Shown: piece by piece, positions 5,696 to 39,135 of the stretch | How positions within the stretch are numbered: the stretch's first letter is position 1 | How the letters are laid out: each line of letters opens with the position of its first letter | From: Anaerovorax sp. IOR16 | GTDB lineage: Bacteria; Bacillota; Clostridia; Peptostreptococcales; Anaerovoracaceae | Length of the DNA: 40,000 nucleotides | Assembly (NCBI RefSeq): GCF_017168145.1 | Contig: NZ_JADQTL010000009.1 | Coordinates: 1,080,799 to 1,120,798 of the forward strand | Direction of reading: 5' to 3' | Program-made: the position numbers and the translations under genes | Notes under the pieces: model-generated | The model's input: only the letters and a program-made list of their open reading frames with translations | Databases searched by the model: none | What the model was told of the DNA's origin: nothing

Positions 5696-5971
5696 TTATT
5701 TTTCTGCTAGAAGATTTTTCACTTGTTGCAATAGCTGAACAGCTTCTCCTTTTGATTCCAAATCACCGTCTTCAATTGATTCAATGATTCTGTCAATGCT
5801 ATTTTGATATTGTTTTGGGTAATATTTTTTAAATGTCACGCTTTCATTTTTAGCATCTAAAATAATTTCCAATGAATCATTGGTTTTAATTTGTAGAACC
5901 TTTCGAATTTCCGTTGGAATAACTATACGACCTACGTTATCTATCTTTCTCACAATTCCTGTTGTTTTCAT
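5696..5971 (-). CDS. AbrB/SpoVT-family DNA-binding protein (transition-state-regulator or antitoxin-like)
   Basis: N-terminus MKTTGIVRKIDNVGRIVIPTEIRKVL matches the swapped-hairpin AbrB motif (GRIVIPxEIR). AAAGGAGAA SD. Confidence 0.75.
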   Translation of the reverse strand: MKTTGIVRKIDNVGRIVIPTEIRKVLQIKTNDSLEIILDAKNESVTFKKYYPKQYQNSIDRIIESIEDGDLESKGEAVQLLQQVKNLLAEK

Positions 5972-6006
5972 ATGCTTTTCTCCTTTATCTTCATCAAATA
6001 ATCGTT

Positions 6007-6375
6007 TTATCGACTCTTAATATTTATTTCTAAATTCTTATTCATTAATCCATCAAATAAAATACTATACCCTTGCCCTTCATAAATTCCTGTTATATTA
6101 ATCATATATATTTCTTTTTCTGTAATATTGTTTTCGCTATCTTTTTCATAATTTATATTAGTATCTATCTTTATTCCTTTAAAAGTAAATCCATTCGGTA
6201 ATTCAATTTTTTCTCTATAATATCTGTTAGAAAATAATTTTATATCATTATTATACCCATCAAGAATATATTCTGCTGTTTCAAACTGTTTAATAAAATC
6301 ATTATCAAATTTATTTATAGCTTCTTCAATTTTAGCAAAATTTTTTGAACTTGAAGCACTAATTTTTATTCCCAT
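6007..6375 (-). CDS. hypothetical protein
   Basis: ORF track; GAAAGGA upstream. Confidence 0.55.
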   Translation of the reverse strand: MGIKISASSSKNFAKIEEAINKFDNDFIKQFETAEYILDGYNNDIKLFSNRYYREKIELPNGFTFKGIKIDTNINYEKDSENNITEKEIYMINITGIYEGQGYSILFDGLMNKNLEINIKSR

Positions 6376-6431
6376 TTTATTTACTCTATCCTTTCACAAT
6401 TTAGCATCAATTCAATATTTTATCTACTCTG

Positions 6432-6647
6432 TTATTTAATTGGATTCCCCATCATATCAAATTGTTTTTTACATATGTCACATTCTAAAAAATGTACTTT
6501 TGATATAGTTCCAACTCTTTCAGTTTTATTTACATGAGGACAACCATTTTTAATAATTTCTTGTTTTTCAATTTCTTTTTGATTTTCCTCTTGTATTATT
6601 TCAGCAAGTATTTCATCTGTAAGGTTTTCAAATTCTTGATTGCTCAT
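6432..6647 (-). CDS. small Cys-containing (CPH...CDIC) hypothetical protein
   Basis: ORF track; AGAAGG upstream. Confidence 0.55.
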   Translation of the reverse strand: MSNQEFENLTDEILAEIIQEENQKEIEKQEIIKNGCPHVNKTERVGTISKVHFLECDICKKQFDMMGNPIK

Positions 6648-6695
6648 TGCTGTTACCTTCTTTCTATCCCTATAAATCTACAATTTTATTCGTTG

Positions 6696-6860
6696 TTATT
6701 CTCCTAATCCTTCTTCCCAACCCCAGTCTGGGTCTATGGAAGCAATTCTGGCTTCTTCATAATCCATACCACAAATTTCAACTTTCCAATCTATCCATGA
6801 TTCTCTACTATCTTTCTTTCCTGTTTTCTGTAGATATTCTTTATAACTGTAATCCAACAT
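6696..6860 (-). CDS. small hypothetical protein, 54 aa
   Basis: Below the track cutoff. ATG at 6860 is preceded by GGAGGCG. Translates MLDYSYKEYLQKTGKKDSRESWIDW... It replaces the implausible plus-strand ORF 6647..6898. Confidence 0.45.
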   Translation of the reverse strand: MLDYSYKEYLQKTGKKDSRESWIDWKVEICGMDYEEARIASIDPDWGWEEGLGE

Positions 6861-8036: not shown

Positions 8037-8173
8037 TTTTTTAATCTCCTTTATACAAACAACGGATTTAAATTATCTCCAAAATAATTCTTTCCAACTC
8101 ATTTTATCACACCCTTTATCAATTTCCAATCTACATTATTTAATTGTAGCTTCGAAAATTTTTTGGCAAATCT

Positions 8174-8218
8174 TCTCACGCTTTTTGGCAAACTTTTCAT
8201 ATCTGCCATAGCGTGAGA
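8174..8218 (-). other. 8-bp inverted repeat (TCTCACGC / GCGTGAGA) flanked by GGCAAA/TTTGCC repeats, immediately 3' of the RT gene
   Basis: Read directly. Arms are at 8174-8181 and 8211-8218. TTTTGGCAAA occurs at 8161-8170 and 8184-8193, and an inverted TTTGCC at 8228-8233. Confidence 0.4.
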
Positions 8219-8257
8219 TTTTTAGTTTTTTGCCACTTAGTTTGAGATTATTGGTTC

Positions 8258-9343
8258 CTAGTTGTCCCTCCTGAATATAGTATCATTCAACAGCTTAGCC
8301 TTGAAGTTATAACTGTCAAAATGCTGCATGATACCAAGATATGACTGTACGGACTGGTTTATCTCTTCAAAGTCCTTAGAACCTTCCGAATAAGCTTTCT
8401 GAAGCATTTTAAACTTCCTCTTAATCTTCTTTAAGGTCTTTTTCTTTAGTTTTCTATGTGTAGCCCATACTCTAAAGCCTACAAACTCAATACCGCACGA
8501 TATGGGTCTTATAGCGGTCTTATTATTCAAGTCTAGGTCGAGAACTTCTTTTAAGAATACTTCAATATCGGTTTTAATCTCATGTAAGTATTTTTTATCA
8601 TCTGCCAGTATTATTATATCATCCATGTATCTTACATAGTAGTGTATTCCAAGCTTATGCTTAACATACTGGTCAAGCTCATTGAGATATATGTTAGCGA
8701 ATAGCTGAGAGGTTAAATTTCCTATCGGTATCCCTACATCAAAAAGCCTATCTTCTTCACTGCATTGGTCAGGCTCCATTCCAGCAGGAAGTCCAAAAGG
8801 AACATCTTCACTGTTTATAATCGTATCTAAAAGCCAAATAAGGTCTTCATCCTCAATCTTATTTTTCAGGATATCCAATAGTATTTTATGATTAATCCTG
8901 TAGAAATATTTTGATATATCCAGTTTTAAATAATAGTATTTCTGTGGCTTCCTGTTTACTTGCCTTAACCAATATTGAAGCCTATCAGCAGCCTTATGAG
9001 TACCTTTTCCAACTCTGCACCCATAACTATCATAAATGAATTGCTTGTCATATATCGGATATAAGACCCTGTATATAGCCCATTGGACAACTCTGTCCTT
9101 AAAGGGTAATGCCATTATTAACCGCTTTTTAGGGTCATAGACAAAGAATTCTCTATACCTACCAACCTCATAAGTCTTATATATTAATTCATTTTGAATC
9201 GTGATTAAATTCTCTTCAAGGTTTGTATTGAACTCCAGTACATCACGTCTGTATCGTTTGCCTTTCTTTGCTTCATTTGTTGCTATATAAAGATTTTCAA
9301 AGTCTATTATTTCAGAAAATATATTTCTTAGTTTTTTAGCCAT
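8258..9343 (-). CDS. DGR-type reverse transcriptase
   Basis: RT motifs are present: LDISKYF, GIPIGNLTSQLFANIYLNELD (the [I/L]GxxxSQ signature typical of DGR RTs) and YVRYMDDIIILADD. Start placed at the ATG (MAKKLRNIF...) behind GAGGAAG; the track start at 9397 has no SD. Confidence 0.9.
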   Translation of the reverse strand: MAKKLRNIFSEIIDFENLYIATNEAKKGKRYRRDVLEFNTNLEENLITIQNELIYKTYEVGRYREFFVYDPKKRLIMALPFKDRVVQWAIYRVLYPIYDKQFIYDSYGCRVGKGTHKAADRLQYWLRQVNRKPQKYYYLKLDISKYFYRINHKILLDILKNKIEDEDLIWLLDTIINSEDVPFGLPAGMEPDQCSEEDRLFDVGIPIGNLTSQLFANIYLNELDQYVKHKLGIHYYVRYMDDIIILADDKKYLHEIKTDIEVFLKEVLDLDLNNKTAIRPISCGIEFVGFRVWATHRKLKKKTLKKIKRKFKMLQKAYSEGSKDFEEINQSVQSYLGIMQHFDSYNFKAKLLNDTIFRRDN

Positions 9344-9423
9344 AAAGCACACTTCCTCATAATAATTAGTCATATGGCTATGTGTAGCACTTTTCATTTC
9401 TTACTTGGTGCTTCCATAGCAAT

Positions 9424-10740
9424 TTAATATTTTGCTTTGTCAGCAGGGAAATGAGCCCCTTTGTCCTCTCTGTACTGGATGCAAGCCCTTGAGCTTGCAA
9501 CATCTGACAATGAGAGCAGAGCGGAGCGGAAACCAATGTTGTTGCTCGAGTTCGAACGAAGGTTGTTCAAGTTCAAGGCGAAAACCCCAGCAACAGAACC
9601 GTCGTTCCAGTAGCCACCACGAATCGGAAGCCTTTCTCCGTAGTTACGAACCCAGAAGCCATCTCCTCCACACGAAGCATCTACTGGAGCAATCCCTAAA
9701 GCTTTTAACAACGTCGGTACTGTTACACCGCTCTTAGCAGCTAAAGTCTCAAAATTACAATGGCTGTATCTATAGTATTCGTTAACATCTCCACCAGTGT
9801 AGTTAGGATTATCCCTTACAGTATTTATGATTGGGTCTCCTCCTACATTGTTTCCATCTTTGTCCGCAGTACCAGGAGTTGTATTGTCAATTTTAAGAGT
9901 TGAAGCTGTGCCTGGTGCTGCCAAATTACCATCCTGTAAGACAGCTTTCCACCAAGAGCTTGTATCTCCAAAGTCAGCGTTTGCCATTGCAGCATCATTG
10001 TCCTTTACAATCTGTATTTCACCATTCTTAAGTCTTAGTCCAGCAGTCCACTCCCAGACATTACCGTTCAAGTCGAATATACCTTCATTTGTTCCATCAT
10101 GAGCCCATGCTGCTGAACCTGAACCAGTTGCAACTCTACCAGTATGATGATATTTAGTGCCATCAAATTCATTGGCTCTGTTGTTCCAGTTATAGTCTAG
10201 TAACCAATCGTAAGTTTGAACTCCGACCTCATGTAGTGCACTGTGTTCACCTCCACAATAATTGTTACCCCTTGGCATGTATCCGTTTTTCTTGCACCAT
10301 AAGGCTATTGCAGTCCATTCAGCATTCGTCATAAGATGCCAGCCTGCCCCTTTGTTTTTGCAGTATTGCACCGCTTGGTCAAAGTTCACATAGACTCTAG
10401 GGTCTTTCATTGGAAGTGAGTAAGCTCTATCATTTACAACTATGTTTTGATACTTAGATATCAGGATTTCATCCTTAACAACACCATCCACGATAAAGGC
10501 TGGATGCGTTGTATTAGGAGCACCGTCAATCACATCAGATAAGTTGAATTTTGGTATCCTAACCATTACTGAAGGCATCCCAAGTTCATCAAATAAATAA
10601 CTCTCTAATTCTTGCCCGTTTACATCGTCAATTTCTACTGGTATTAATGAACAATCTTTCATTATATATTTAGTATCATTAATAATTGATTTATAATCTT
10701 TGCTTGTTTTATTCCATTGTTTACTCGTAATTTTAAACAT
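9424..10740 (-). CDS. DGR target protein with C-terminal C-type-lectin/FGE-like fold
   Basis: Contains GWHLMTNAEW, GIFDLNGNVWEWTAG and a C-terminal RGGYWNDGSVAGVFALNLNNLRSNSSNNIGFRSA. It lies directly upstream of the RT on the same strand. AAAGGAGAT SD. Visibly G+C-richer than all neighbours. Confidence 0.85.
   Translation of the reverse strand: MFKITSKQWNKTSKDYKSIINDTKYIMKDCSLIPVEIDDVNGQELESYLFDELGMPSVMVRIPKFNLSDVIDGAPNTTHPAFIVDGVVKDEILISKYQNIVVNDRAYSLPMKDPRVYVNFDQAVQYCKNKGAGWHLMTNAEWTAIALWCKKNGYMPRGNNYCGGEHSALHEVGVQTYDWLLDYNWNNRANEFDGTKYHHTGRVATGSGSAAWAHDGTNEGIFDLNGNVWEWTAGLRLKNGEIQIVKDNDAAMANADFGDTSSWWKAVLQDGNLAAPGTASTLKIDNTTPGTADKDGNNVGGDPIINTVRDNPNYTGGDVNEYYRYSHCNFETLAAKSGVTVPTLLKALGIAPVDASCGGDGFWVRNYGERLPIRGGYWNDGSVAGVFALNLNNLRSNSSNNIGFRSALLSLSDVASSRACIQYREDKGAHFPADKAKY
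9480..9499 (-). promoter_or_regulatory. hairpin about 20 nt 3' of the VR (candidate DGR target-recognition hairpin)
   Basis: On the minus strand TGCAAGC-TCAAGG-GCTTGCA forms a 7-bp perfect stem. It follows a GC-rich run (TCCGCTCCGCTCTGCTCTC) at the VR 3' end. Confidence 0.45.
9520..9621 (-). other. candidate DGR variable region (VR)
   Basis: These 34 codons encode RGGYWNDGSVAGVFALNLNNLRSNSSNNIGFRSA and are rich in AAC codons. They sit at the position where VRs lie in CLec-fold targets. Exact ends cannot be set without the TR. Confidence 0.6.
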
Positions 10741-10753
10741 ATTATTATCTCCT

Positions 10754-32669: not shown

Positions 32670-33758
32670 ATGGCTATAGCCAGAAAACCAAGAATTGCAG
32701 AAGCTACAGATACATTTGACGATAGCCATACATATAAATGTTTACGTTGTGGTGCTGAACATCAAAATCCAGTAAAAAAATTTTATAGGTCTGAATGGTC
32801 TGAATTGTTTTTAAAAAATGATAGATATGTTCCTTTATGTATTAAATGTGTTAATGAAATTTTTAGTAATATATCAAATAAATACGGAACCGAAACTGCT
32901 TGTATTATTTTATGTTATATGATGGACATCCCGTTTTATCATAGTTTATATGATAGTATTGTTAAAAATAATAATATATTTTCTATAGGTGTATATAAGA
33001 GACAATTAAACAATAAGCAATATCAATTTCAATCATTTCAACAAACAATTCTTAATGAAGAGTTATATAAAACAGATGACGATATACGAGAAGAAAAAGA
33101 AGTAAAATGGACTGCTGATAAAATAAAAAATAAGAATGATGCAATTAACATAATCGGCTATGACCCTTTCGATGGTTATTCAAGTAATGACCGTCGTTTT
33201 TTATTTGGTGAACTTGTTAAATATTTTGATGATGATATTTCGGAGGATACATTTAAACTTTCTCAAATTATTCAAATTGTAAATAATAACAATCAAATTC
33301 GTCAATACGATTTATTAATATCTTCATTAAATCCAATTAGAGATGCAAATGATATAAAAATGCTTGGTATTTTAAAGAAAAATTGTGTTGATAGTAATGA
33401 TAAAATTGCAAAAGAAAATGAAATATCTGTGAAAAATCGTTCAAATAAAGACATTGGCAAGTCTACACTTACCTATCTTATGAGAGATTTGAGAGAGAAA
33501 GATTTTAAAAAAGCTGAAGCAAATTATTACGACCAATTAAAATCTGAAGGTACTTTATGGGCTATATCAATGTCAAATAAAGCTATAAAACAAAATGGAA
33601 TGTTTGACGAAAATGATAAACAAGAGATTTTTGATATACAAAGAGAAACAATTCAAAAATTACAATCTGAATTAGATGAAGTGTTGGAAAAGAATAGATT
33701 ATTATTAATAGAAAACGCAGATTTGAAATCAAATAAAGACGGTGATAAAAATGAATAA
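32670..33758 (+). CDS. putative terminase small subunit / DNA-packaging accessory protein (Zn-ribbon N-terminus)
   Basis: It sits immediately upstream of terL and overlaps it. CLRCGAEH...CIKC zinc-ribbon; C-terminal coiled-coil-like region. Function is inferred from position only. Confidence 0.4.
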   Translation: MAIARKPRIAEATDTFDDSHTYKCLRCGAEHQNPVKKFYRSEWSELFLKNDRYVPLCIKCVNEIFSNISNKYGTETACIILCYMMDIPFYHSLYDSIVKNNNIFSIGVYKRQLNNKQYQFQSFQQTILNEELYKTDDDIREEKEVKWTADKIKNKNDAINIIGYDPFDGYSSNDRRFLFGELVKYFDDDISEDTFKLSQIIQIVNNNNQIRQYDLLISSLNPIRDANDIKMLGILKKNCVDSNDKIAKENEISVKNRSNKDIGKSTLTYLMRDLREKDFKKAEANYYDQLKSEGTLWAISMSNKAIKQNGMFDENDKQEIFDIQRETIQKLQSELDEVLEKNRLLLIENADLKSNKDGDKNE

Positions 33759-35604
33759 AATTAGAAAAAAAGTTCTTATGACTGAATTTAAAAGAAGAAT
33801 TTGCGAATTAGATGCAGAATCAATAGCTTATTATAGAAGGAATCCTTGTATTGCTTCTGAAGATTTGCTTGGAATTAAGTTAATCGACGCACAACGTTAT
33901 ATATTACAATCATCTTGGAATACTCCTCATTGTGTTTGGTGTTGCTCACGTAACTTTGGAAAATCATTTATTGGTGCAATATTTATGATATTGAAAGCAA
34001 TTCTTTATGAGAATCAGGCTATTTATATTGTATCTAGTGTAGGTTCTCAATCAAAAGAAACATTTGGTAAAATTGAAGAAATTGTTTTAAATATCGGGAA
34101 AACCGCTGCATCCATTAAATCTTTAAAAGATATTGTAAGAAAAGAAACTAAAAAGTCCCCAAATAATAAAACTGGATTTAGCCATGCTCCTGAAAGTTAT
34201 ACTGTTGAATTTTACAATGGAAGTGAAATTTTTACATTAAATGGAAAGCCTGATAATAATAGAAGTAAACGTTCAACTTTAGTTTTTTTTGATGAAGCAG
34301 CATTTAGTTCAGATGAATTAATTTCTGCTTGCGAAGCATTTGCAACACAAAATACTGATTTTACAACATCTACTGATGAAAGTTATAATCCAGAGACAGA
34401 AACAAGAAAAGTTCCAACTCAATTAATATATGCTTCATCTCAAGACGAGATGGATAAAATGTTTTATAAACACTATAAGAATTATGCAAAAAGAATGTTG
34501 GCTGGAGATAGAAACTATTTTGTATGTGATATGATTTGCGATACAGCAATAAAAACATTTATGGATGGGAAGCCTTATGTTCCACTTCTTACTCAGTCAA
34601 AAGTCGACTCAGCTATGAAAGCAAATAAAGAAAAAGCTTTAAGGGAATATTATAATCAACCTACAAGAGATGGTGGAGTTTCACAAATTATTAAATGGCA
34701 TGTTATTCGCAGAAACGAATCGTTTTATTTACCGCAATTATATTGGAAACCAAATAATAAAATTGCATTAGCATTTGACCCTGCTAGAACAATGGATAAT
34801 TCTATTTTAGGAGCGATGAATTTATATCAAGATGATGAATTAGGTTGGTGTGGAGATATTGTTAATTATGTTAACTTTATAGATATTGCAAGTAAAAAGA
34901 AATATAAATTAGACTCTAATAGACAATTGGATGAAATTAGACAAATTATATTGAATTATAATGGCAACCACCCTGATTATGAATATCTTGATTCCTTAAT
35001 GATTGACCAAGGGGCAGGTGGTGGTGGAACAAGTACATATGCAGATGGATTACTAAATGATTGGAATGATAAAACAGGTCGCACCCATAGAGGTTTGATT
35101 GATGCTAATCATGATATATATGCTGGTTACTCTGATATATATCCTAATGCAATAGATAAACTTCGTTTAATAAGTCCTAGAAAATATAGAACTCAAATGG
35201 TAGAAGAGTTTATTGAATTAATGAACTTAGGAGTTATTAAACTCCCATATGAATTTAAAGGGCAAGATTTTATTAAGATAATAAAAAAAGAAGATAATAA
35301 TATTGATGAAGAAGAATTTGAAACGTATGATTTGAGTGATGATGAGATGTTAAGCTTAACTCAAATTGATTTAATGAAAAATGAAATCACATCAATTCAT
35401 CGATTTAAAAACCCCGAAGGCACATCGGTATCTTACGCTTTATCTAAAGAGAAAGAAAATAAAATGCACGATGATAGATTTTATGTGGCTATTATGTTAG
35501 CTCATAGGTTACATGAAATTAGACGTGGGCAAATAATTAATAAAACAAATAACGAAGCAGACCTCTCTTCCCTGCCCTCTTGTGTTTCATCTGTAGATTT
35601 TTAA
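33751..35604 (+). CDS. terL: terminase large subunit
   Basis: Walker-A-like CSRNFGKSF and Walker-B-like TLVFFDEAAFS, a nuclease-half-like C-terminal region, and about 620 aa. It sits at the head of the structural module. The ATG at 33751 overlaps the upstream stop. Confidence 0.8.
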   Translation: MNKIRKKVLMTEFKRRICELDAESIAYYRRNPCIASEDLLGIKLIDAQRYILQSSWNTPHCVWCCSRNFGKSFIGAIFMILKAILYENQAIYIVSSVGSQSKETFGKIEEIVLNIGKTAASIKSLKDIVRKETKKSPNNKTGFSHAPESYTVEFYNGSEIFTLNGKPDNNRSKRSTLVFFDEAAFSSDELISACEAFATQNTDFTTSTDESYNPETETRKVPTQLIYASSQDEMDKMFYKHYKNYAKRMLAGDRNYFVCDMICDTAIKTFMDGKPYVPLLTQSKVDSAMKANKEKALREYYNQPTRDGGVSQIIKWHVIRRNESFYLPQLYWKPNNKIALAFDPARTMDNSILGAMNLYQDDELGWCGDIVNYVNFIDIASKKKYKLDSNRQLDEIRQIILNYNGNHPDYEYLDSLMIDQGAGGGGTSTYADGLLNDWNDKTGRTHRGLIDANHDIYAGYSDIYPNAIDKLRLISPRKYRTQMVEEFIELMNLGVIKLPYEFKGQDFIKIIKKEDNNIDEEEFETYDLSDDEMLSLTQIDLMKNEITSIHRFKNPEGTSVSYALSKEKENKMHDDRFYVAIMLAHRLHEIRRGQIINKTNNEADLSSLPSCVSSVDF

Positions 35605-36703: not shown

Positions 36704-37843
36704 ATGATAAAAGGGTTTAAAACACAAATTTATCCAAATAAAGAACAACAGGAGAAGATAATTAGGTTTTGTAACGCTAGTCGATTTGCGTATAATTGGG
36801 CTATTGCAATAGAACAAGATAATTATAAAAATGGAGGAAAATTTATATCTGGATATAATTTAACTAAAATGTTTACTCAATTTAAAAAACAAGAAGGTAA
36901 TGAATGGTTAAAGGAAATATCTGGACGTGCTTTAAAAGTTGCTATTTTAAATGCTGGACAATCTTATGAAAATTTCTTTAAAGGCAGAGCTAAGTATCCT
37001 AACTTTAAATCTAAAAAAAGAAGTAAAAAGTCATGTGCAACACATGAAGGAACTACTATAATCGAAAAGAAAAGAATTAGATGTGAAAAATTAGGTTGGA
37101 TTCCAAGTCATAAACATAATATTCCTATTGGTGAAAATATAAAATATTATAACCACAAATTATCTTTTGACGGTATAAATTTTTGGTTTAGTGTATCAGT
37201 AGAATTAGAAGATTATAAAAATACTAAACCAAAAACAGAATCTGTTGGCATTGATTTAGGAATTAAAACTTTAGCGACATGTTCTAATGGAATAATATGC
37301 AAAAAACCTAATATAAAGAAAGAACAAAAGAAATTAAAAAGATTGAAGAAAAGAGCATCAAAACGATATCAAAAAATGATTGATTATTCTAAGCAAACGA
37401 AAATCAAGTTTGTAAAATTAGAGAAATCAAAGAATTTGCTTAAACTTGAAAAACAAATTTTGAAACAATATCAAAAAATTAACAATAAGTTAACGACAAA
37501 TATACATACTTTCACAAAATCATTAATTAATTTAAATCCACAAGCTATTGTAATTGAAGACTTAGATGTTAATGGTATGAGAAAAAATAGACATTTATCT
37601 AAATCTATAAATGAAGCTAAATTTTATGAAACACGTAGGCAATTAGTATATAAATGTAATTGGTATGGAATTAATTTAGTTATTGCTGATAGATGGTATC
37701 CTAGTAGTAAAACTTGTTCAAATTGTGGTTGTATCAAAGAAAAATTAAGTTTAAGTGAACGTATATATGTTTGTGAAGATTGCGGTCTAATTATAGATAG
37801 AGATTTGAACGCAAGCATAAATTTAAGAAATTTAGCAATGTAA
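36704..37843 (+). CDS. tnpB: TnpB (IS200/IS605-family RNA-guided RuvC nuclease)
   Basis: Typical N-terminus MIKGFKTQIYPNKEQQEKIIRFCNASRFAYNWAI. RuvC-I in VGIDLGIKTLAT, RuvC-II in AIVIEDLDVNGM. Zinc finger CSNCG...CEDCG followed by DRDLNASINL (RuvC-III). Strong AAAGGAGG SD. Confidence 0.9.
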   Translation: MIKGFKTQIYPNKEQQEKIIRFCNASRFAYNWAIAIEQDNYKNGGKFISGYNLTKMFTQFKKQEGNEWLKEISGRALKVAILNAGQSYENFFKGRAKYPNFKSKKRSKKSCATHEGTTIIEKKRIRCEKLGWIPSHKHNIPIGENIKYYNHKLSFDGINFWFSVSVELEDYKNTKPKTESVGIDLGIKTLATCSNGIICKKPNIKKEQKKLKRLKKRASKRYQKMIDYSKQTKIKFVKLEKSKNLLKLEKQILKQYQKINNKLTTNIHTFTKSLINLNPQAIVIEDLDVNGMRKNRHLSKSINEAKFYETRRQLVYKCNWYGINLVIADRWYPSSKTCSNCGCIKEKLSLSERIYVCEDCGLIIDRDLNASINLRNLAM

Positions 37844-38007
37844 TTTAACTACATGTTAAATATGTACTCAGACCGTACTGAGGATTTTAAGTCTGTGGAG
37901 TTCTACATCAAACTAGAGTAGATTTATCGAAATAGAGAACAATGAAACAGAAAGTATAAAGTTAAGAAATGAAATTTTATAAAATTTATAGAGTTTTATA
38001 ACTTTTG
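37844..38007 (+). ncRNA. 3' part of the TnpB omega-RNA (reRNA) scaffold / intron 3' segment
   Basis: In TnpB elements the guide RNA scaffold spans the 3' end of tnpB to the right end. This ORF-free 164 nt contains the CTCAG-ACCGTA-CTGAG hairpin and ends at the proposed 3' splice site. The 5' limit probably lies inside tnpB and is not determined. Confidence 0.45.
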
Positions 38008-39135
38008 TATTACGGTACTTATATTGTTTGTTTAAGAAATAACGGAAATAGTTATATTGTAGACCATTATCCTATCGGTGTTGCATATATGAGTGAATAT
38101 ACATACGGTGGGAAACCAGTTGTTGAAATTAATATCAAAGAACTTGAAACAAGATTGAAAAAGACATATGAAAAAGATAAAAAGAAAAAACCAATTTTCT
38201 TTGAAAATATCGAAAAGGATATCCAAGCAAATTATCCACCAGAAGTTTATAAAGCTTATAAAAATAAAGAAACTGTTGTTAGATTGGATACAAAATATAC
38301 TGGAGTAATAAGAATTGGAAATATGGGTAGAAGGTATGGGGTATCCCCTATTCTTCGAGCGTTAAAATCAGCCCTTATGCTTGAAAATTTTGAGAAAAGT
38401 GATAATACTAATGCTAAAGCTAAAGCTAAGAAAATTATACATCAAATTATGCGTAAAGAATGTCTGGGCTCTGATTTAAACAAAAAGGGTTTCGAATATG
38501 CTATTCACGCACATAACGAATTATGCAGTGCGTGGAAAAATAAAACTGTCGTATATACTTCTATTCCGCAAGTTGAAAAAGTTGTTTATGTAGAACCTAA
38601 AGTAGATGATACTAATGCTGATAAAATTAATATTTATCGAAGTAAGATTATGACAACACTTGGTATAGGGTTTATAGACACTAATGTAGCTAATTTTTCT
38701 GTAGCGAATATATCATTAGACCAGCTAATGAAGACTATTAATTCTATATCTCAACAACTTGAAAGAATTGTTCAAGATTGGTATGAAGTATTGTTTGAAA
38801 ATGAAGGAATCGATTTAGAATACCTTCCTACTATACAAATTATAGACAGTGAAGCAATGGATATGGAAATGAAAAAAGATTTAGTTGAATTACTTTATAG
38901 TAAATTAAATTGTTCAATGAGTACGGCTCTTGATATTTTAGGATATTCTCTTGAAGACGAAAAACAAAAACGTATTTCCGAAAATGAACAAAATTTAGAT
39001 TCAGAAGTATTTTTACCTCATAATTCACAATATACAAACAGTGGTTTAAATAAAAATGTAGGTGCTCCTTCAGATAGTAAAAATTTAGACAAACAATCTG
39101 ATGATAAAAACTACAATAAAAAAGTGAGAAAATAA
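38008..39135 (+). CDS. putative portal protein, exon 2
   Basis: The frame opens only 2 codons upstream (stop at 37999-38001), and there is no SD or ATG for the track's TTG start. It continues the exon 1 frame after removal of 36115-38007. Confidence 0.55.
   Translation, partial: YYGTYIVCLRNNGNSYIVDHYPIGVAYMSEYTYGGKPVVEINIKELETRLKKTYEKDKKKKPIFFENIEKDIQANYPPEVYKAYKNKETVVRLDTKYTGVIRIGNMGRRYGVSPILRALKSALMLENFEKSDNTNAKAKAKKIIHQIMRKECLGSDLNKKGFEYAIHAHNELCSAWKNKTVVYTSIPQVEKVVYVEPKVDDTNADKINIYRSKIMTTLGIGFIDTNVANFSVANISLDQLMKTINSISQQLERIVQDWYEVLFENEGIDLEYLPTIQIIDSEAMDMEMKKDLVELLYSKLNCSMSTALDILGYSLEDEKQKRISENEQNLDSEVFLPHNSQYTNSGLNKNVGAPSDSKNLDKQSDDKNYNKKVRK

Follow-up and report, generated by a model that had tools for sequence, protein, structure and literature searches.

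In the diversity-generating retroelement (DGR) of phage BPP-1 (mtd-avd-TR-brt), sequence passes from a template repeat (TR) to a variable repeat (VR) with changes specific to adenines. The difference between the initiation-of-mutagenic-homing elements IMH and IMH* shields the TR from overwriting. cDNA integration begins at the VR 3' end and depends on the IMH and a hairpin (PMC3240598); a 5'-GRNA hairpin-loop consensus is found downstream of phage VRs and is required for BPP-1 retrohoming (Guo et al. 2011, PMC3240598). The reconstituted BPP-1 system does not work without Avd (bioRxiv 10.1101/2025.08.18.670894). Other canonical phage DGRs have targets of the type of TaqVP from Thermus aquaticus (PDB 5VF4), and a further example is the DGR of Bacillus phage BalMu-1 (NC_030945), the closest phage in the phage collection, which is also Mu-like and carries target, Avd, TR and reverse transcriptase (RT) near its right end. 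Here we describe a DGR cassette in a stretch of 40,000 nt from Anaerovorax sp. IOR16 (contig NZ_JADQTL010000009.1, positions 1,080,799 to 1,120,798; hereafter the window). It consists of a target gene and an RT gene, and it is very probably a collapsed copy of an ordinary phage DGR, in which VR and TR recombined with each other and 569 nt were deleted.

The window RT contains the IGxxxSQ and YMDD motifs, as in canonical phage DGRs with TaqVP-type proteins, and two parent copies in the same genome possess every canonical part. These parent copies resemble the BPP-1 element in their adenine-specific TR-to-VR transfer, the GC-rich 3' end of the VR and the hairpin with a GRNA loop (PMC3240598). 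The BalMu-1 cassette is 67% identical in DNA to that of the window, and a search of the phage collection with the window returned distant DGR matches only. Unlike the TaqVP and BalMu-1 DGRs, the window copy lacks a separate TR, avd and the VR hairpin, its target is extended by 31 codons, and about the first 50 codons of the target are foreign.

The cassette in the window

The assembly comprises 3.38 Mb in 12 contigs, three of which are referred to as C8, C9 and C12; the window is C9:1080799-1120798 on a contig of 1.36 Mb. The parts of the cassette are listed in window coordinates.

9424-10740, minus strand: chimeric target gene, 438 amino acids (open reading frame, ORF; Pfam FGE-sulfatase, a C-type-lectin/FGE fold; PHROG 2889)
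10585-10600, minus strand: 5' junction of the imported DNA, within the target gene and at a conserved D-(D/E)-L-G-M-P-S motif
9520-9631, minus strand: putative VR/TR hybrid repeat, the sole copy in the window (three-way alignment and counts)
9592-9631, minus strand: VR-like 5' part of the repeat, with three A-to-N changes relative to the TR
9574-9591, minus strand: adenine-free core of the repeat
9520-9573, minus strand: 3' part of the repeat, identical to the TR
9344-9519, minus strand: TR 3' flank (spacer region of the DGR RNA), identical to the TR-RT interval of the canonical copies
about 9479-9498, minus strand: spacer hairpin TGCAAGCT-CAAG-GGCTTGCA, of the TR side, adjoining the TR in both canonical copies
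8258-9397, minus strand: DGR RT, 379 amino acids from the longest ORF (motifs IGNLTSQ and YMDD; Pfam RVT_1, E=3.8e-24)
8145-8257, minus strand: right end of a Mu-like prophage, 113 nt, ending in ...CTACA, with two TTTGCCAAAAA repeats and an 8-bp inverted repeat

The window thus holds an RT with the motifs of the DGR clade and a VR at the C-terminal end of a protein with a C-type-lectin fold. With its single repeat, it has no TR/VR pair with mismatches at TR adenines. The absence of a TR and of avd, which the original prediction had reported for the whole window, was confirmed by several searches. An ungapped scan of both strands, in which any mismatch opposite A was scored as a match, recovered only the VR region itself, and a separate repeat finder likewise gave nothing VR-like. 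The cognate Avd had no tblastn match anywhere in the window, whose ORF list contains no small Avd-like ORF between target and RT. The adenine-free core GCTGGGGTTTTCGCCTTG does occur only once, but at 9574-9591 of the minus strand, 6 nt from the position previously given (9568-9585). The target-RT gap of 80 nt (9344-9423) described in the same prediction presumes that the RT starts at the ATG at 9343; the longest ORF begins at 9397 instead, but most homologues align from residue 19-21 of this longer ORF, so the ATG at 9343 is probably the true start. The RT is intact and 100% identical to that of the complete DGR on C9.

The target is composed of three segments. Residues 1 to about 50 are local, residues ~52-407 are identical to the DGR variable protein of a Mu-like prophage (the imported part having 100% DNA identity to C9:580381-581373), and residues 408-438 form a read-through tail of 31 residues encoded by the TR 3' flank, a sequence that is conserved as a TR flank in relatives and is translated here as the end of the target. 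The repeat itself encodes residues ~371-407, and the C-terminal coding sequence (...GGYWNDGSVAGVFALNLNNLRSNSSNNIGFRSA) has an AAC codon content that is unusually high for a variable repeat. In an AlphaFold2 (AF2) model, residues 45-412 were confident, whereas residues 1-43 and 413-438 had a predicted local distance difference test score (pLDDT) below 50, and the tail is accordingly modeled as unstructured. The best PDB match of the confident core was TaqVP (5VF4), with a similar fold (template modeling, TM, score 0.85; 41% identity). Such tails are unusual, as 110 of 118 close homologues end 5-6 residues after the GFR motif and tails of 28-45 residues are seen in only three, the window target included. 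No candidate emerged when residues 398-438 were used to look for other proteins with the read-through tail.

Comparison with the canonical copies in the same genome

Sensitive blastn of the VR region against all 12 contigs showed that C9:581903-582014 and C8:323554-323665 match window 9520-9631 with three substitutions, all located at adenines of the remote copy. A repeat with differences confined to adenines, named in the original prediction as the observation that would speak against it, therefore exists at the level of the genome, at a distance of about 507 kb on the same contig and again on another contig, but not in the window or nearby. Both copies belong to canonical cassettes with the order target-avd-TR-RT, one at C9:580.3-583.4 kb and the other at the end of C8. 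The corresponding blastn VR/TR pairs were C9:581265-581445 with 581903-582110 (pair span 581265-582110) and C8:323458-324303. The parts of the C9 cassette are given in the numbering of the extract L001, in which 9904-10015 corresponds approximately to C9:581903-582014.

L001 8301-9461: target gene ending in the VR
L001 9533-9874: Avd (PF22296, E=3.9e-36; NF033474, the NCBIfam model DivGenRetAVD, 129.9 bits with a cutoff of 80)
L001 about 9904-10015 (C9:581903-582014): TR, inside the ORF 9884-10111
L001 10138-11277: RT

The canonical VR and TR are direct repeats of ~112 bp with 89% identity, separated start to start by exactly 569 nt, and 12 of the 12 mismatches inside the repeat fall at TR adenines. 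A hairpin, GGAGAGC-GATA-GCTCTCC, whose loop fits the 5'-GRNA consensus, lies downstream of the VR stop codon at both canonical VRs.

When the window was aligned with the C9 copy (C9:580381 to 583389), it was found to be identical base for base over ~2.4 kb except for one gap of 569 nt, exactly one VR-to-TR period, and three substitutions. Relative to the TR, these are A>T at 9612, A>G at 9603 and A>T at 9593, all three at TR adenines. They lie among the eight adenines 5' of the core, whereas all 14 adenines 3' of the core are unchanged (probability 0.0014 at the mutation rate of the 5' part), leaving 19 of 22 adenines intact. On the 5' side of the repeat the window tracks the target gene; past the end of the VR/TR homology it has the flank of the TR (CTGCTCTCATTGTCAGATG...) and not that of the VR (TTTGTCAATCTGTAA...), and this continues unbroken into the RT. 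The VR hairpin GGAGAGC-GATA-GCTCTCC was searched for and is absent from the window, with the TR-side flank standing in its place. These alignments show the single repeat to be a VR/TR hybrid, with diversified VR in the 5' third and with TR in the 3' two-thirds and the flank.

We infer from this arrangement that a crossover or slippage took place between VR and TR, the exchange falling within or beyond the 18-nt identical, adenine-free core. Such a deletion would have removed the 3' end of the VR, the stop codon, the GRNA-loop hairpin, avd and the 5' end of the TR. VR and TR are in register, so the target frame was kept and the ORF reads through 31 codons of TR flank before a stop. The three adenine substitutions in the 5' third would be a remnant of an earlier round of mutagenic retrohoming; because the VR part of the window differs, at adenines only, from the other two VRs, which are identical to each other, at least one such round separates the copies. 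The absence of neutral change in the imported 2.4 kb indicates that the events were very recent. The notion of a decayed or frozen DGR, one of three explanations offered in the original prediction, was thus correct, and the cause now assigned to it is a merger of VR and TR by recombination. A second option, a TR outside the 40 kb, is literally true, since the cognate TR and avd are present elsewhere in the genome, but does not account for the missing repeat; no support was found for the third, an unconventional template.

Some features of the other DGR loci in the genome were observed in passing. The C8 target gene has a 1-nt deletion near 324440 (GGAGGAGACCC to GGAGGAACCC) that breaks its frame, and the C8 RT differs by one residue, A to V, beside YMDD...IIIL (position matching C9:582930); the C8 copy is either a pseudogene or the product of a sequencing error. 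A fourth, unrelated DGR-like pair at C9:331859-333381 consists of an Avd-like ORF (31% identity) and an RT (35% identity), with repeats unlike those of the window.

Origin of the cassette and its landing site

The identity among the three cassette copies stops 113 nt past the RT stop codon, at ...TTTTCGAAGCTACA, at the same nucleotide in each and with a different flank each time; in the window this boundary is sharp (8144/8145). The prophage that terminates in the C9 copy has genes for a tape measure and a baseplate. Two copies of this Mu-like prophage were identified, one at C9:~550490-583389 and a second split between C12:1-15813 and C8:322174-324691, with ~16 kb unassembled. Its transposase is of the Mu type (Mu-transpos_C, DDE_2 and HTH_Tnp_Mu_2 domains), and its ends read TGTAG...CTACA, each the inverse of the other, the left end having been placed by comparison of the two prophage copies. 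The three right-end and two left-end flanks are all different. A 6-bp GATATA, a candidate target-site duplication, was found on both sides of the C9 copy, whereas the C12/C8 copy shows ATAT only and a left end is missing from the copy in the window. A search for a perfect inverted copy of the 26-nt right end found none. The common endpoint, the different flanks, the Mu-type transposase and the TGTAG...CTACA ends together identify window position 8144/8145 as the right end of a transposable phage.

The remainder of the window belongs to another element. Its G+C content is 27-30%, compared with 33-40% in the cassette, it has prophage genes of its own (integrases, terminase, portal and exonuclease), and it shares no other DNA with the Mu-like prophage beyond the cassette. 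On the 5' side the identity begins inside the target gene, of which about the first 50 codons are local, AT-rich and preceded by their own strong ribosome-binding site. The cassette is a right-end fragment of a Mu-like transposable prophage within a different, AT-rich prophage. A third copy of the Mu-like phage would have landed in the window prophage and lost everything to the left of target codon ~28, leaving the last 2.45 kb; this insertion is our inference, and the left-side loss could have preceded or followed the 569-nt collapse. We considered the local N-terminal ~50 codons as a divergent native DGR target and rejected this, as most of the near-invariant residues of the family are missing and the pLDDT is below 50. 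Searches for relatives of the window prophage with an empty site, using the 220-amino-acid and 119-amino-acid flanking proteins, gave nothing useful in IMG/VR, and a 12-kb DNA query had no match in 40 related genomes.

Other observations concern the surroundings of the cassette. Between the right end and the local ORF that follows it lie 108 nt (8037-8144); they begin with ATTAAATAATGTAG, which together with the phage CTACA gives an inverted repeat, CTACA...TGTAG; a similar one, CTACAA...TTGTAG, is present at the C8 flank, and both may be due to chance in AT-rich DNA. A gene for a 379-amino-acid transposase at window 36704-37843 (PHROG 506, E=4e-102) lies between the large terminase (33742-35604) and the portal (38005-39135) and is probably an insertion sequence (IS) in the packaging module. 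A 1.6-kb repeat occurs in ~45 copies with 98.6-100% identity across contigs (e.g., C8:284123-285712), and several contigs end inside it.

Occurrence in other genomes

Two homologues from other samples have the same arrangement of a target fused to TR flank and directly followed by the RT. The first is on a 33-kb contig with a tail module, a 377-amino-acid target, an intact RT and no avd; the second has the same gene order on a 2.8-kb contig. Both tails correspond to the TR-plus-spacer region found in canonical relatives; neither matches the VR flank. To these we added a survey of 160 loci collected by target homology from IMG/VR and GTDB genomes, 128 of which had enough DNA to be judged.

Canonical cassette: 91
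Collapsed cassette: 0
Orphan target: 27
RT present (in four as a fragment only), no avd: 6
Avd present, no RT: 2
Avd and RT present, no TR found: 2

With none in 128, collapse is rare in the surveyed sample, orphan targets and other incomplete cassettes being much commoner. The exact junction pattern had no match in the viral contig or genome contig collections. In the literature searched, no published description of recombination or collapse between VR and TR was found; homologous recombination between the two is mentioned only as a negligible background in work on reconstituted BPP-1 (bioRxiv 10.1101/2025.08.18.670894). In one surveyed locus, L036 (IMGVR_UViG_2588253772_000001, 5858-6750), three tandem copies of TR plus spacer stand between avd and RT, the first resembling a true template (AAT-rich) and the other two carrying VR-like substitutions.

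Predicted function and alternative explanations

With the 3' element of the VR, the hairpin and the cis-encoded Avd lost, the window locus is most likely frozen near the template state and no longer diversified, if the rules established for BPP-1 hold here. The RT is probably co-transcribed with the target now, and the cognate Avd is encoded twice in the same genome. It is conceivable, though unlikely, that the hybrid locus serves as a second donor template, whose RNA could prime cDNA homing into the two canonical VRs. This rests on the retention of the full 3' part of the TR, the spacer and an intact RT, and on the supply of Avd by two prophages. If true, bases selected in the VR (T, G and T at three template adenines) would flow back into a template, which the design of DGRs is thought to forbid.

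Several points count against a genuine collapse of the cassette. The structure rests on one assembly, and that assembly left ~16 kb of the second prophage copy unresolved. The two outside cases are short-read Logan contigs from samples SRR29063593 and SRR28985894, in which a VR/TR collapse could be an assembler artefact, and none of the 128 informative IMG/VR and GTDB loci shows one. Loss of function, moreover, is extrapolated from BPP-1.

An artefact would have to be considered for the window copy as well: the third copy could be canonical, and the assembler could have crossed from VR to TR by way of the core that they share and so have left out avd. VR and TR do have long exact stretches in common, and the assembly is flawed for this very prophage, as C8 breaks off within the target gene and the second copy lacks ~16 kb. 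However, ~45 copies of the 1.6-kb repeat (99-100% identity) and both other cassettes were resolved inside contigs, which indicates spanning reads and an assembly able to bridge a repeat of 2.4 kb. The hybrid 5' part carries three substitutions found in no other copy and therefore comes from its own locus, and the outer junctions at 8144/8145 and ~10590 are unique and lie deep inside the 1.36-Mb contig. We consider such an artefact improbable.

The cassette could alternatively be a live remote target, with its VR diversified in trans by the TR, Avd and RT of the prophages 507 kb away; on this view the three changed adenines would be left over from such activity. Remote targets have been described for DGRs (Wu et al. 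2018, PMC5758913), the cognate TR differs from the window repeat at three adenines only, and an identical RT and a cognate Avd are encoded in the same cell. However, what follows the repeat is the 3' flank of the TR and then, without interruption, the RT gene, where a target would have a VR flank, so the repeat is not a VR awaiting a remote template. The hairpin present at both true VRs is missing from the window, and no adenine of the 3' part is changed (0/14), whereas in BPP-1 integration begins at precisely the VR 3' end, with IMH and hairpin (PMC3240598). Trans-diversification of the window repeat is, on these grounds, slightly less credible still than misassembly.

A self-templating element, in which one repeat is both template and target and the RT works without Avd, has in its favor an intact RT probably co-transcribed with repeat and spacer and a layout recurring in two other assemblies, but it can be almost entirely discounted, since the locus, being identical to a canonical cassette apart from one missing repeat period, is a very recent offshoot of it and no lineage of its own, the canonical layout is found in 91 of the 128 informative relatives, Avd is essential in reconstituted BPP-1 (bioRxiv 10.1101/2025.08.18.670894), and self-templating would erode the element's own adenines, of which 19 of 22 are intact.

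Discussion

A collapse of the cassette by recombination between its repeats adds no new mechanism. Because the undeleted parent is present in this genome and identical base for base, distant relatives are not needed to reconstruct the event. In BPP-1 the TR is protected from overwriting, but the direct-repeat pair itself is unprotected from ordinary recombination, as probably happened in the window copy. For annotation, the signature to look for is a C-terminal repeat rich in AAC (Asn) codons, an ORF extending 25-45 codons beyond the usual stop, and an RT start within ~100 nt. The finding explains a class of loci, RT plus target with no TR or avd, that is otherwise unclassified in DGR surveys. 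The two direct repeats with which a DGR works are a built-in deletion hazard, and a single crossover between them leaves a near-template target with avd gone.

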